Source of the DNA: Hypanus sabinus
Lineage: Eukaryota
Direction of reading: 5' to 3'
Assembly (NCBI RefSeq): GCF_030144855.1
Contig: NC_082714.1
Span: 93,496,001 to 93,560,000 of the forward strand
DNA length: 64,000 nt
The first letter of the stretch is position 1; every line of letters begins with the position of its first letter. A program made the translations under genes and the position numbers. Under the pieces are notes generated by a model. The model was not told the DNA's origin and searched no databases. It saw only the letters and a program-made list of their open reading frames with translations. Positions 56,690 to 64,000 of this stretch are shown here, in pieces.

Positions 56690-59400
56690 GGGCTCCACAG
56701 CTGCCTGTTGTAATAAAATCCATAAATAGACCACCCTCTGTCTAAAGCAATTTCTCATCAGCTCTGTTTTATATGGACGCCCCTGAGGCTGTGCCCTATA
56801 GCCCAAGACATCCCCATCATGGGAAACATGTCTTCTACATCTTCTTTGCCTAGGCCTTTCAACATTCGAAAATTTTAAATGATATTCCCGCCTCCTCACT
56901 ACCAGTGAATATAGACCCAGAGCGTTCCCCCTATGATAAGCCTTTCATTCCGAGCGTCATCTTTGTGAACCTCACCTAAACTCACTTCAATGCCAGCACA
57001 TTTTTTCTTAGATAAGGAACTGAAAACAGTTTAGAACACTCAAGACATCAGTGCCTTGTAAAGCTTCAGCATCACACCCCTGACCTTGTATTCTGGACCT
57101 CTTGAAATTAATGCTAAATTGTATTTGCATTTCTCATCACGGTCTCCACCTGCTGCTACGGTCCCTTTCGGCAAACGCCCACGTGGTTATTTTCCTCAGG
57201 AATTGGGCATCAATCACCTAGTTTGGTTCCCAATCAGTCCCAGGTTCCACTAACTACAGACACCTGCCTTCCATCAGCAAATGCAGCATAAAAATCCTGT
57301 GACCACAACAAGGATCTGCCAGTTCGCTGGTCGATTCGTGTACGAGCAACCTCGTTCCATGGTTCTTAGGACTATCAGTTCTAAGTCTAGCATCGTTCCT
57401 GAATTCTGTACTAAAACTAAGACTCCGGGTAAAAACTCCTTTGGCACCAATTCCGCGCCCGTCTTCAGCACTTGGGTTCGTTCCACCGCCACGTCCTTGC
57501 AACACCTGCACAGTCATCTTGAGGGTGTTCTGCATAAGGGCGATGAAGTCTCTTTACATATTAGCTTTTGGGATTTTTTCCGCATTTAGAAAATAATCTG
57601 CACAATTATTTCTTCTACATGTCCATGCATTTTTCAGCATTGTATTTCATTTACTCAACACTACCTGCAACTACACCTATCTTCGTAACATCTGCAAAAT
57701 TAGTAAGGAAGTCATCTATTCCATCATCTAAATCATTATTATGGAGCATAAAACGAAGCCTTCCGAATACTGACCCCTGCAGAACACTACTAGTCACTGG
57801 CAGCCAAGGAATAAAAGTTTCCTTTTATTCCCTCTCACTGCCCTTGCCAAACATCCAATGTTGTAATCGTGCCAGTAACCTTTCAGTAATACTATGGGCT
57901 CTTAACTTGGCAAACAGCCTCATGCGTGGCACCTTGTCAAAAGCCTTCTTAAAGTCCAAATATAAAAGATCCACTGCACCCCCGTTATCGATCGTACTTG
58001 TAATCTCCTTAACGAATTTGAACAGGTTGGTCAGGCAAGATTTTCGCTGAAGGAAAGTCCTCTGGCAGCATACCAGAGTTCAATTATTTTTGCAAGATCA
58101 TTACTAATGCCTCCACATTGTCTACAACTACCTCTTTCCGAACATTATGGGGCAGTTCATTTGTCCCGGATGACTTATCTTAGCTGTTTCGGAGCTTTAC
58201 CTTCCCCTTTGTAATAGTAACTGCACTCACTTCTCTTCCCTACACCCTTCAAAAGCTGGCACAGTGCTAGCGTCTTCCACAGTGAGGACGGATGCAAAAT
58301 ACCCATTTAGTTCATCTAGTATATTATTTATCTGCACTCATTTTCCTATCGGTCTTATATCAACTCTCACTTCTTTCTTTTTTACTTATTTGGGGAAAGC
58401 TTTTACTAAACACTTATATATATTTTCCGAGCTTGTTTTTGCAGTTCATCTTTTCTCACCTAATGATAATTTGCATTGCTCTCTATAAGTTTTTAAGAGC
58501 TGCCCAATCGTCTGTCTTCTCACAAATTTTTGCTTTGTGATGTGCCCTTTCTTTTACTTTGACTTCCCTTGGTTATCCCAGGTTGTGCTATTTTTCCAAA
58601 TGACTTTATTTATTGCTGGAATACATCTATCCTCCATCTTTCCCATTTTTTTCCCCAGAATCTCACTCCATTGATGCTCTGCTGGCATTTTTGCCAGCAT
58701 CTCCTTCCAACTTACTTTGGTCAACTCCTCTATCATACCACTGAAATTTCCTCCACTCCACTGAAAGAGTGTAATTTCAGACCATACTTTCTATGTCAAT
58801 TTTTAAGCTGAACTCAGTCATATTGTGATCACTGGCTTCTAAGGGTTCTTTTACCTTAGGCGCCCTTTTCACCTCCAGTTCATTACATAACATCCAGCTG
58901 ATCCCTCAGCAGGTTCAAAAAATAACCGCTCTAAAACTCCATCTCGTATGCATTCCACATACTCACTGTCTTGTGATCCATTACCTACTTCATTTTCCCA
59001 ATCGATGTGCATGTTAAAAGCCTTCACAGCTATTTCTTTTGACACCTCTTTTCTATTTCCCGTTGTAATCTGTGGTCCTCATCCCAGCGACAATATATAG
59101 CTGCTATTAGGGGCCTTTAAAACTTGCAGTGACTTAACATATCCCACTAGGATTCAACATCTTCTGATCCTACACTATGTCACATCTTTCTACTAATTTG
59201 ATGCCATTCTTTACAAGCAGAGCCGCTCCACCTGCTCTGCCTACCTTTATATCACTCCGACACAACCTGTAAGCTTAGTCATTCATCTGCCAACCACAAC
59301 CATCCTTTAGCCACAATTTCAGTGATAGCCAGAACATTATACATGACGATCTGCCATAGTGCAACAAAATCATCTACCTTATTTCTTATCCTCCGTGCAT
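56690..59400 (-). mobile_element. Degenerate CR1 LINE, interrupted by a solo LTR
   Basis: Reverse-complement ORF2 sequence (e.g. ccttgtcaaaagccttcttaaagtccaa = LDFKKAFDK); continuous across 57154-57504. Confidence 0.8.
57154..57504. mobile_element. Solo LTR, 351 bp, 5-bp TSD
   Basis: TGCTAC...GCAACA flanked by CCTGC at 57149-57153 and 57505-57509. Confidence 0.75.
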
Positions 59401-60383
59401 TGTGCCCGGCGACTTCATGTGTTAGATCTGGATATTTCAATTCCATTCAGTGTATGCCTACAACTCACTCGAGGCTGCTGGCTGATTAGGTGAATATTAT
59501 TTTTCTCAAAATAAACTTTACCGTAAATTAAAAAAAAGAAGAATAAACCGTCCAATATCTTCTCATTCTCATATTCTTAATCAATGTTTTCAGTGCGAGT
59601 CTATTACAATCCATTAAAACCAATTGGACTGTGTGCACTTATGTGGCCCCCCAGTGGGTGGTATAGTTCTAAACAAATGAGCGGCTTACTCATCCGATCT
59701 GGGCCCTCTCTCCAGCAGCGGTAGAACCCCACAATGTGGTCCTTCCCTTCTGAGCCCTTGTAGTAACGGCTCCATTTACAGTGTGTCACCTAGCATCTAC
59801 CCCTGCAACCTGATATGCAGTAGTCCATTATTCCGGATTTACTGGGACTGAGTTACTTTCACTGGGGCATTAGAACACCAGCATCTTTCTGCGTCTGTAG
59901 TGACAGACTAGATGAAACAAGGATGGTAGATTTAGTCCCGATTCATCAGTAAACTACGTGAGATCTACGCAAGGCAACCATGGATTCCATTTTAAAATGT
60001 TTGTAGATTTATTTATTGTTCAATAAATTTGAAAACCACACTTGGCTGGAGGGCGTTCAACATCGTGCCTTCGCGGCAGCGGCCGGGCCTAGTAGCTCTC
60101 CGGAACAGATCTAATCACGTGGCACTATCTTGGTTTCATCTGATCATCTGGGCCACTCCTTCTATAGCCTGCTCCAATTATTGCCATCCTGCTCTCATCA
60201 GGATGACTGCGTGTTCCTACCTCGGAAATAATCACATCTATCGCCACGCCCCCTCTGACAAACGTCAAGCAGCCCCTGCCCTCATATCTCCTGACAGCTG
60301 TCACTACAAGAATTGTATCTCTTGTTTCACTTGGGGTAAAGTTTGAAAGTAGTATTGGAGTATAAAAGTTGCATTGTTTGCAG

Positions 60384-60979
60384 TGTAACCAAAACTAGGT
60401 AGTCAGCTTTGTGTTTGCTATTTGCTATGCATGTATCCAATTTAGTAGGAGAATGAAATCTCTGTATTGTCTCTGTACTATTGAACTCATCAATGACTTA
60501 AGAATGTAGCCAAATAAGAAGATAATAGCGTGTCAATGAGAGGCTAGCTGAGAGATGTATGTTATGTAGTTAGCTTTGTGTTTGCTATTTGCTATGTATG
60601 TATCCAATTTAGGAGGAGAGTGGAATCTCTGTATTATCTCTGTACTATTGAACACATCAGTGACTTAAGAATGTAGCCAAATAAGAAGATAATGGTGTGT
60701 TAATGAGGTAGCTAAGAGATGTAGATTAGAACATGATTGAGTTAATGGGTAGAAACAATAGTGGCTGATGTACTAGTGATACGCAACTGTAGACCGATTG
60801 GATATGCTAATGCAACTAAACCAGGAGATTGCTATAAAAATGCTATGTACAAGGATCGGTGGGCAATCAGCGACTAGCTCAATGACTGCCTCAGCTTTGA
60901 TTTGCAAATTAAAGCTTAACACTTCTTGAAGAATCTTCTGCGTCTCCTGGTCGTTTGTGGGGCACGAGAAACCACGACA
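60384..60979 (+). mobile_element. 5' LTR of an endogenous retrovirus
   Basis: TGT...ACA ends (the start could instead be near 60345); ATTGG at about 60797; TATAAA 60833-60838; ATTAAA 60908-60913; PBS 4 nt after the 3' end. Confidence 0.8.
60400..60723 (+). repeat. Tandem duplication (167-bp period) in LTR U3
   Basis: tagtcagctttgtgtttgctatttgc at 60400 recurs as tagttagctttgtgtttgctatttgc at 60567 and stays aligned to about 60723. Confidence 0.95.
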
Positions 60980-60983
60980 AAAT

Positions 60984-61001
60984 TGGCGACCGTGGCAGGA
61001 C
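60984..61001 (+). other. Primer-binding site, tRNA-Arg(TCG)-like
   Basis: TGGCGACCGTGGCAGGAC; 17/18 complementary to the 3' end of vertebrate tRNA-Arg-TCG (...GTCCTGCCGCGGTCGCCA) as I recall it. Confidence 0.75.
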
Positions 61002-61335
61002 CGGAAAGAGACCCGCGGAAAGGAAACGGCAGATTGGGGACGCTTCCCAGTCCTTTAGGGACCCCCACAAGGCTAACAGAATTAAGGGTGCACCCAAACA
61101 AAAGGTAAGCGCTTTTTGCGACAATTTGGACTAAGAATTATGTTGGTTCTGGGGAGGTCTTGGAGTCTCAGAAGTGTGGAACCACAGCCGAAGGGTCTCT
61201 CCGGTCCAAAGAATTGGCAGAATTGGGGCTTAACAGGAGGCTCAGAGGATTGATCAAGAACACTGCAGTGAGGGTAAGTACAAATAAGCTAATAAGAAGT
61301 TAAGTGACGAAGAATTCCACGTGTTGTCGGTAAGT

Positions 61336-61501
61336 CCCTGTGGATACCGCTTCGTATGAACCGAAGGTCTGAACGGGCAGGGAAAGGAAAAATAGAGAAA
61401 ATCCTCGTGGATACCGCCTTAAGAGATAAGGGTCTGAATAGACGAGGTGCATAGAGAAAATCCCCGTGGATCCCGCTCTGAGTAGAGGTCTGTACGGGCG
61501 G
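61336..61501 (+). ncRNA. Three tandem copies of a structured RNA motif in the ERV leader (candidate packaging signal)
   Basis: Units 61336-61382, 61403-61447 and 61462-61501 share TGGAT(A/C)CCGC and GTCTG(A/T)A cores, with sequence-variable but pairing-preserving inner and outer stems. Confidence 0.65.
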
Positions 61502-61645
61502 AACAGAATAGGACACAAGGACAGTCCAATATATAGTTTAAAGCGCTGGTATATAGACGATCGATCAGGAATAGAATTAGAGAAAATAATATTATCCAGT
61601 AAACGAACTGTGAATCTCTGAAAAACCTTAAAAAGAGAGAACAAC

Positions 61646-63983
61646 ATGACCGGTAAAGGAACGGCAGTAGAGATTCTACGCAAAAAAATCCCGGTAAATA
61701 AATATGAGATCACAAAACTTCAGAAAAATGGGAAACAAGAACCAAAAACCTGATCACAAAATGGCCAAGAGAAGGAACGTTTGATGTAAACTTGTGCGAA
61801 GAAATGGAGGCACTAATTAAATATTACAAGCGAAAAGATAAATCTAAGAAAAGAGGGCAAAAAAGAGAACGAGAAATGGAAGTGCTAAAACTTTTCAGAA
61901 CGGAGGGAGAAAGGCTGAGGAGGACAGGTAGAATATTGATTACAAGCGAGGAAGACACTAAGGTGCTGGAGAAACAGCCTGTTAGAGAGAGAGGAAGGTA
62001 CAGTGAGAAGCTGGCTTCAGCTCTGTACCCGGATGTGAATGAAATAGAAAAGCCCCCTACCTTTAATGAGGAAGGAACACCTAAGCAGTGCCCCCTGCTG
62101 ACGGGAACAGTAAACATGCAGGGAAAAGTACAAGGTTCGGATAATGAGGAGGAAAAAAGACAATAGGAGAAGGAAAAAGCGGCGATATGGAAGGAGATAC
62201 AGGCAGAATGTATAAAGGTGGAACAGGCAAAGAGAGAAATGAAAGAAGAGATTGAACGGATGAAATACTTGAGGGAGGAAAAGGAGTATGAGGAGTATCG
62301 GTTATATCATAGAAATGAACAGACTAGAAAAGAAAGTAGCTCATCAGGGCAGGAAGAGATGAGGCATTCAATAGGAAGTCGAATAAAGAAAGGAGATGAG
62401 AGTCTTGGAGAAACACAAGAGAGAAGGGAATCAAGCACGAGTAAGGATCATGAGGAGTCCCTGCCACAGGAGTACAGACACGGACAGGAAGAAAGAGAAG
62501 GTGACTCATTGGAGGAGCTAGAGTTAAATGGAGAGAGAGAGGATGCGAGAATTTGTGGGGAAGAGATGGGAGCCAGAAGCCTAGAAGAGCAGCAGGAGGC
62601 GGTGGGGAAGAGACTTGCGGAAGTAGAGAGAGAGAGAGCTAGATAAGTTACTGAGAGGGGATTGCCAGAGGAGATGCGAAAAATACTCCAGGGGCCAACC
62701 AAGTATTGAATCAGGAGAGAAAGGAAGGACTCCAAAGGGAGACCGAGGGAAGAAGAGGAACCCGGAGAAATTTGTGTGGGAGGCAGTAAAGACATACCCT
62801 GAGACAGGTGGGGAGTCAGGCGAGGAGGAGAGCCAGGGCAGGTGGGAAGAAGGAGGAAGAATGATGTTAGTTAAAGGATCAGGACAAGTGCAGTATATCC
62901 CTTGGGGATCCCAGGACCTAGAAGGGCTGAGAAACACTCTGCCCAATCTACATGAAGGAGCAGGGAAATGGATTAGAGCCTTTGAAGAAGAAACGGTGGA
63001 ACGATTATTGGCAATGGGAGATTTGAAGCCACTATTGATAAGGTTGATGGGAGCCTCCAAATTTAGCAAACTAATGTAAATGGCGGGCATAGTAAACTCG
63101 TACGACCCGAGAACTCATGGAAACGGGTTTGGCAGAGTGAGGCAGAGGGTATGGCAGGTCCTCAGGAAAATTTATCCACCCAAAGTGGACCCCAAAGCCT
63201 TAAAGGGGGATCCACTGGGAGACACTGAAAACCCAGCAGCCTACGTAGAAAACCGGTTGAAAAGCTGGAGACTGGAGACTGAGCAAGAGGTGGAAAATAG
63301 CTTATTTATCACCACACTGTTCCGACATAGCATTTTGGATGCAATGCCTTCGCAAGTAAAATCCAAACTGGAGGAAGTGGTTGGGCTGACGTCAGTGACC
63401 CCACAAGAATTTAGAGACCACGTAGTCCATGCGGTTGAGAAATACCGGAAAGACAAACGAAGGTTGGCTGAGCAGCAGGAAGAGGTGCAAATAAAGTTAA
63501 TACAAATGCAGCTCGAAGAACTCAAAAAGAAGGAAAAAGAGAAAAGCAAAAAGATGCTGCCAGCAACCACCGGTCCGAGTACAGCCAATGAACTGGATGA
63601 AGCACCACTATATGGAGGAACCGATCATAGTGTAAGACAAGGGCCGGAAAACCCCATGCCAATAATTAACGTCTTTGGACGAGCATTCCCACAAATGCCT
63701 TATCAGGAACAGACTAAATTCAAACAGCCCAGACAGTACTGGAAGTCCCAAGGAGGGGGACAGCGCACCTATGGGCAGAGGGGACCAGTGAGGAAACGGG
63801 GGAAAGAGAGTTAGAGAGACTTGCTGGGGATGTAATCAGCCAGGTCACATGAGAAGAGATTGTCCGTTTACACCATGGCCTGTCACACACCAGCAGGAAC
63901 CGATAAGAAGGGAACTAAAGCTTAGCCAAGGACCAGTCTCCACAGGCCCAAGCGGACCTGTGAACCTCTATGCGAGGTATTAG
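61646..63983 (+). pseudogene. gag: Class I (gamma/epsilon-like) ERV gag, with stops and frameshifts
   Basis: MA motif KWPREGTF (cf. MLV WPRDGTF); CA start YIPWGSQDL; MHR-like GDTENPAAYVENRL; single CCHC knuckle CWGCNQPGHMRRDC from 63822; ends TAG-GGG at 63981. Confidence 0.88.
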
Positions 63984-64000
63984 GGGTGCCCCGAGAACTC

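Follow-up and report, generated by a model that had tools for sequence, protein, structure and literature searches.

Tandem predicted RNA hairpins with covarying stems and a conserved core in a class I endogenous retroviral leader of Hypanus sabinus

The leader of an endogenous retrovirus (ERV) in Hypanus sabinus carries a tandem array of small RNA units whose stems change sequence in a paired manner around a nearly fixed core, a pattern that supports selection on an RNA fold. What the fold did for the virus is a matter of probabilities, and we give about an even chance to a reading, drawn from sequence and position, in which the array is a set of modular docking sites for Gag/nucleocapsid and the core of a packaging signal. 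The element lies in the window, a stretch of 64,000 nucleotides from contig NC_082714.1 (assembly GCF_030144855.1, positions 93,496,001 to 93,560,000), and positions given here without another label count from the first letter of the window.

The array and the provirus that carries it

An earlier note on this DNA described three units with changing stems and nearly fixed junction strands, and these are found in the sequence as written (Table 1). The units are 42 to 47 nt long and lie between the primer-binding site and gag, about 140 nt before the gag AUG. In 79 kb searched, the next-best match to our model after the three units scores 13.3 bits; units 1 and 2 were themselves in the training set of the model. 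The outer stem pairs and changes between units, as had been claimed, but has 6 bp rather than 5. Likewise, the linker described as common to units 2 and 3 is so in the window copy and in L002 but is not a family trait; most copies have a distinct, fully paired 5' arm in unit 3, and the linker and arm of the window copy resemble those of units 1 and 2.

Table 1. Features of the provirus and its leader, in window positions
Feature	Positions	Strand	Remarks
4-bp target-site duplication	60349-60352		Beside 5' LTR
5' LTR	60353..60979	+	92-95% identity to 3' LTR at L031:6960-7422
Primer-binding site, tRNA-Arg(TCG) type	60984..61001	+	One difference from commonest form among copies
10-nt palindrome, candidate dimer-initiation site	61086..61095	+	Intact in 89/116 leaders; dimer role inferred
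Donor-like site 1, AAG/GTAAGC	61105..61110	+	Overlaps 8-nt palindrome; strict pattern in 67/116 leaders
Donor-like site 2, AGG/GTAAGT	61274..61279	+	Best conserved, 101/116 leaders
Donor-like site 3, the donor of the earlier note	61330..61335	+	GTAAGT in 71/129 leaders, GTAAAT in 42/129
Unit 1	61336..61382	+	Outer stem of 6 bp, inner hairpin of 5-6 bp, conserved core; model match 69.6 bits
Unit 2	61403..61447	+	Core of unit 1, other outer stem and inner hairpin; model match 60.1 bits
Unit 3	61462..61503	+	Same core as units 1 and 2, shortest inner hairpin; 5' arm atypical in window copy; model match 44.8 bits
gag	61646..64000	+	Stops and frame changes; continues into pro-pol-env past window end
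Single CCHC zinc knuckle of nucleocapsid	63822..63863	+	From translation

"Triplicated", the word used in the earlier note, fits the window copy, but arrays of the family hold 2 to 9 units. Our family sample, which was partly selected by the array itself, comprises 129 distinct leaders with 417 units after removal of duplicates. Arrays of 2 to 9 units are present in 127 of these leaders (2 units in 19, 3 in 81, 4 in 13, 5 in 8, 6 in 3, 8 in 2 and 9 in 1), and one leader each has no unit and one unit. Dropped from the sample were 7 duplicate leaders (5 with the same locus twice, 2 with identical loci), 5 loci without an anchor and 5 false unit calls; duplicates are still counted in the gag-picked sample, the folds in context, the arm swaps, the comparison of stems with core, and the counts based on 438 units or 122 leaders. 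Among copies picked by gag match alone (60 taken from 150 gag matches), 57 have two or more units, the exceptions being one copy without a unit, one with a single unit and one showing none. The order 1-2-3 is the most frequent (68 leaders); unit types are also duplicated, lost and mixed, and units have been shuffled by recombination.

Genome-wide, the core pattern has 892 exact matches, against 31 for its reversed control, in a search by sequence pattern that diverged units could escape. The virus is present in hundreds of copies (677 candidate matches to the array, 40 of these scored). Distant Gag and Pol queries against the same genome return matches within a narrow range of identity, and the 150 candidates scored for each give no hint of another, closer virus family. 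The motif is seen in one virus family, in the window genome and in four related organisms. Gag-based scans found no remote homologs in viral_contigs or genome_contigs and, in metagenome_contigs, two loci, neither with the motif; a tandem pattern run against viral_contigs gave 40 rows, none with both stems, and these were rejected as chance.

Two copies depart from the usual layout. In L039, an insertion of about 220 bp between units, with TATA-like and AATAAA words and duplicated flanking bases, looks like a solo LTR of another element. In L053 (4470-4610, minus strand), the leader is fused directly to the end of env with the array retained; we rejected this deleted copy as a sign of mobilization in trans, as its junction is single-copy.

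The element in the window is a full-length but broken gag-pro-pol-env class I ERV. It combines LTRs, a primer-binding site and gag-pro-pol-env with an MLV-type reverse transcriptase (RT), MLVIN_C and TLV_coat, the features of a class I (gamma/epsilon-like) ERV. Downstream in L031, the domains are RVP, RVT_1, RNase H, integrase, MLVIN_C and TLV_coat (env), and the RT has MLV-type RT as its nearest among solved structures. The nearest named proteins are from bamboo shark for Gag (64%) and from a ray for Pol (74%), with teleosts also represented, which points to a cartilaginous fish as the likely host, and a single CCHC motif is also visible in the Gag relatives P0003-P0006 and P0008. Placement within class I follows domain content and best hits, and the label "epsilon-like" is taken from the accessible portions of fish ERV reviews (PMC4977317, PMC4422223), in which shark ERV lineages II and III cluster with epsilonretroviruses. 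The 5' LTR has a 167-bp tandem duplication (60396-60540 and 60563-60707, copies 92% identical) that is apparently missing from the 3' LTR, and both LTRs apparently open with TA (60353; L031:6960) rather than the usual TG. The env frames are broken by about 850 bp at L031:5343-6189, probably a later insertion.

The genome has a tRNA-Arg(TCG) gene to whose 3' end the commonest primer-binding site among copies is complementary. At least three other types occur in subfamilies with nearly the same leader (L053:5167-5184 on the minus strand, L058, L060, L073, L079, L132 and L187-L198), and these non-Arg types presumably resemble tRNA-Ser types. Such variety among near-identical leaders suggests repeated primer switching. 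Upstream of the array lie four palindromes: the one in Table 1, by its sequence a candidate for the self-complementary dimer-initiation site expected near a packaging signal, and those at 61107-61114, 61261-61270 and 61317-61324, intact in 70/116, 93/116 and 71/122 leaders (the last count with duplicates included) and, in the case of 61317-61324, altered in the window copy.

The G/GTAAGT beside unit 1 was taken for the splice donor in the earlier note, a reading that is not supported: it is the least conserved of three candidates, and its G>A change at 61334 is common in four other organisms. The site at 61274 is, by its conservation, likely the major donor. Whichever of the three donor-like sites is used, the array lies 3' of it and would still be intronic. 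No leader-to-env joint was seen among the 15 of 32 joints listed, in four runs guessed to be RNA, a result that carries no weight as evidence.

Paired changes in the stems and the shape of the core

Evidence for the fold comes from comparison. Applied to 30 natural units picked by hand from 317 distinct ones, RNAalifold recovers the two stems of the earlier note, with two-sided change at 8 of 11 pairs. When three core pairs are included as well, 8 of 14 pairs are two-sided and 97.6% of cells are paired. None of 500 shuffles reaches the paired fraction or the covariation score of the real alignment, and slid controls are 33 to 54% paired, while the number of two-sided pairs alone is within the shuffle range (67/500). 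The cells count copies, not events, and the independent events come to about seven, in one virus family: the four outer pairs between types, the type-specific inner stems, and changes from U-A to C-G in the inner stems of unit 3 and unit 1. The change in unit 1, at pair 61355/61361, has equal depth on both sides and is found in all four other organisms.

Across the family, outer-stem pairs are canonical in 373 to 411 of the 417 units. When the commonest natural units are compared with one another, junction strands differ at 1 to 3 of 18 sites and stems at 8 to 13 of 20 (Fisher p 0.033, 0.021 and 0.004), and changed 5' stem positions face changed 3' positions (a probability of about 0.013 by chance when the outer stem is taken by itself). 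Swapping arms between unit types leaves 0 to 2 of 4 Watson-Crick pairs. The earlier note, which read the pattern as selection on an RNA fold, had looked to homologous ERV copies for compensatory changes; they are present in both stems, and its reading gains support from copies in the four other organisms as well. Where just one side of a pair has changed, the sense strand shows U-G/U-A or G-C/G-U; such changes of the G-U type on that strand point to viral RNA rather than DNA. Decay at CpG sites, similar in stems and core, amounts to 0.14-0.18; elsewhere the figure is 0.03-0.06. Variation is greatest in the cap loops (0.11). Because decay is alike in stems and core, selection appears to have acted while the virus replicated, with the present copies decaying neutrally.

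The core had been described as an internal loop with nearly fixed strands. The strands are indeed nearly fixed, but they probably pair as a non-canonical helix that two bulges interrupt. In one subfamily (37 pattern matches), both core strands carry linked changes and the natural unit folds as a near-continuous helix (11/11 folded, -14 to -18 kcal/mol). With the "internal loop" sealed into a regular helix in this subfamily, the probable shape of the unit is an irregular rod that carries two bulges of 2 nt each, a model that rests mainly on that one lineage. In order, the rod would have an outer stem of 6 bp, two bulged purines of which the last is an invariant G, a partly non-canonical helix of 5 pairs, two bulged pyrimidines and a variable cap hairpin. 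When the 417 units are placed in this register, core pairs 1, 4 and 5 are canonical in 399, 412 and 408 of them, pair 2 is G-A in 386, and pair 3 is A-A, A-U, A-C, G-C, G-U or G-A. The bulges are CC in 347 units, GG in 264 and AG in 138, with the first C kept in 409 and the last, bulged G in 405; AG is typical of the common unit-2 type and partly reflects CpG decay. CUG is present in 394 and UCUG in 363 of the 417, and in one subfamily the UCUG word is GCUG, fully paired.

Other shapes fit less well. A three-way junction, with a third hairpin formed from the 3' strand, is 91.7% paired, shows no two-sided change and has one pair broken in 9 of 30 units; we rank it below the rod, although a minor fraction of molecules may adopt it. 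Readings as a K-turn, a loop-E or a SECIS-like motif were rejected, since key GA positions vary among lineages, and SMAD/FoxH1 DNA sites would leave the paired stem changes unexplained.

Single units are no more stable than shuffles (z 0.31, -1.58 and 0.05), and neither is the whole 201 nt (z -0.52); with stability so ordinary, evidence for the fold is comparative, not thermodynamic. When 45 leaders are folded in context with nearest-neighbor models, the outer stems of units 1 to 3 are paired with mean values of 0.50, 0.10 and 0.06, and for unit 3 the antisense strand pairs more (0.30) than the sense strand. Forcing all outer stems costs a median of 7.8 kcal/mol (15/88 within 3), and in 3 of 6 examples listed the favored structure has the nearest upstream palindrome base-paired to the 5' arm of a later unit. 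That the fold is disfavored in context may be explained by copy decay together with unscored non-canonical pairs, or by leader switching.

A proposed packaging role and its alternatives

A role in packaging is favored by the position in the leader, the paired stem changes, a Gag with one knuckle, and the presence of UCUG and a bulged G. The single knuckle of MLV binds UCUG and an exposed G, and dimerization exposes such sites (PMC7599994, PMC13736810, in their accessible parts). By analogy, the zinc knuckle would bind the G exposed in the bulge and the G, itself weakly paired, of the (U)CUG word, and several units would give avidity for Gag. The stems would act as scaffolds whose mutual incompatibility between unit types confines pairing to within each unit. 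Through splicing, env RNA would lose the array, and competing folds might hide the binding sites until dimerization occurs via the upstream palindromes. Gag binding, dimerization and packaging by the array are all functions that we infer, and UCUG, as a word of 4 nt, is weak evidence for MLV-like binding. Against a packaging role, two teleost-like relatives (Gag identity 44-57%) have no match to the model, although neither locus has a clear primer site. These two relatives, the metagenome_contigs loci mentioned above, share a different conserved upstream hairpin (L054:210-250, L055:595-640).

It is possible, though unlikely, that the array is an element for nuclear export or stability of unspliced RNA, similar to a constitutive transport element (CTE), with a host factor bound at the core and units multimerized for strength. 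Traits of a CTE include variable stems around a fixed loop, a place in the intron and a donor-like site close by, and no accessory gene was recognized among ORFs of at least 90 aa in L031. Duplication of the loop is suggested to have improved the function of the viral CTE (accessible text of PMC4338338), and MLV distributes several export elements along its RNA, according to the accessible text of PMC7551171. However, the gamma-CTE word AAGACA given there is found in 0/417 units, and the core resembles a helix with bulges rather than an open loop.

We consider it distinctly unlikely that the units are rods for RNA-RNA docking, in which two G-C pairs would form between the CC bulge of one unit and the GG bulge of a second, so as to link two genomes or compact the leader. 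Most units have bulges that are complementary to each other, and the kissing dimer of MLV SL-D uses just two G-C pairs (PMC7599994, accessible sections), but the AG bulge of 138/417 units, the common unit-2 type, breaks one pair, and dimer sites are already offered by the upstream palindromes. The docking geometry is a reasoned one. Comparably low is the probability we attach to an array of tunable length that oligomerizes or dimerizes the genome via bulges half a turn apart and so switches on Gag-binding sites. If docking were true, it would represent a packaging architecture unlike any described for retroviruses and a new RNA-RNA interaction motif.

Control of splicing or of Gag translation, by hiding donor-like sites or aiding internal initiation, seems very doubtful. 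Unit 1 begins right after a donor-like hexamer, three such sites exist, and the leader is long and structured; yet the adjacent hexamer is lost in 58/129 leaders, with the units retained, and copy number varies freely.

A new small self-cleaving ribozyme is highly improbable. The earlier note had allowed for a catalytic motif, and two interchangeable stems around a conserved core do follow the plan of lantern-shaped twister-sister (TS)-like ribozymes as set out in the accessible part of PMC11620745, but the loop sizes are 8+10 rather than 5+6, CA is not conserved (130/438 units, duplicates included), and the core is sealed into a helix in one subfamily. Repeated cleavage between primer site and gag would, moreover, cut the genome. 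The hammerhead core word occurs in 1/417 units. An Rfam search of 59000-64000 at E up to 10 matched no family, the gammaretroviral encapsidation signal and ribozymes included, in line with the earlier note, which saw no match to the hammerhead, HDV-like, twister or pistol consensus.

An absence of any RNA function, the units being products of tandem duplication and template-switch repair of quasi-palindromes or a DNA enhancer array, fits with the recombinational shuffling, the fold disfavored in context and the equal CpG decay, but is highly improbable given that outer arms separated by 30-35 nt change in step around an unchanged core, that changes of the G-U type favor one strand, and that nearly all copies keep two or more units.

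Comparison with known systems

GACG tetraloop hairpins are a feature of the gammaretroviral encapsidation signal; here GACG is found in 2/417 cap hairpins, and the UCUG-UR-UCUG Gag sites of the MLV signal in 0/417 units. The MLV signal also differs from the 2 to 9 interchangeable units, fixed mid-stem core and variable cap loops of this array. It is nevertheless the core encapsidation signal of MLV, as presented in the accessible parts of PMC7599994 and PMC13736810, that the array resembles in its leader position 3' of donor-like sites, tandem hairpins, upstream palindromes, single-knuckle nucleocapsid, UCUG and possible register shifts.

With the MPMV CTE, the NXF1 CTE and the MLV gamma-CTE (PMC4338338 and PMC7551171, as far as accessible), the array shares a core set in replaceable stems, duplication and a place near a donor-like site, but besides lacking AAGACA it consists of separate hairpins in a row, whereas the CTE has two loops in one long stem. 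TS-like (lantern) ribozymes of LINE-1 elements also have two stems flanking a conserved internal region in the 5' region of a retroelement (accessible part of PMC11620745); in addition to the differences in loop size and the conserved CA, ours is a tandem array inside a packaged genome.

The gag-pro-pol-env layout is that of the epsilon-like class I ERVs of fish and elephant shark, and the accessible parts of the two reviews covering them (PMC4422223, PMC4977317) yielded no leader structure. The accessible literature gave us no account of an RNA structure that serves packaging or export in class I retroviruses of fish; most subscription work, including the primary descriptions of ZFERV and SSSV, was outside the search.

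The family offers a small repeated unit of 42-47 nt that occurs in compensatory variants, a subfamily in which the fold of the core becomes apparent, and arrays of naturally varying length, from 2 to 9 units. It is thus suited to studying how a nucleocapsid with one knuckle selects its genome, and whether packaging strength is set by the number of binding sites. Compared with known systems, the unit fails the tested features of the gammaretroviral encapsidation signal, the CTE and known ribozymes, and yet it most likely works like a packaging signal.
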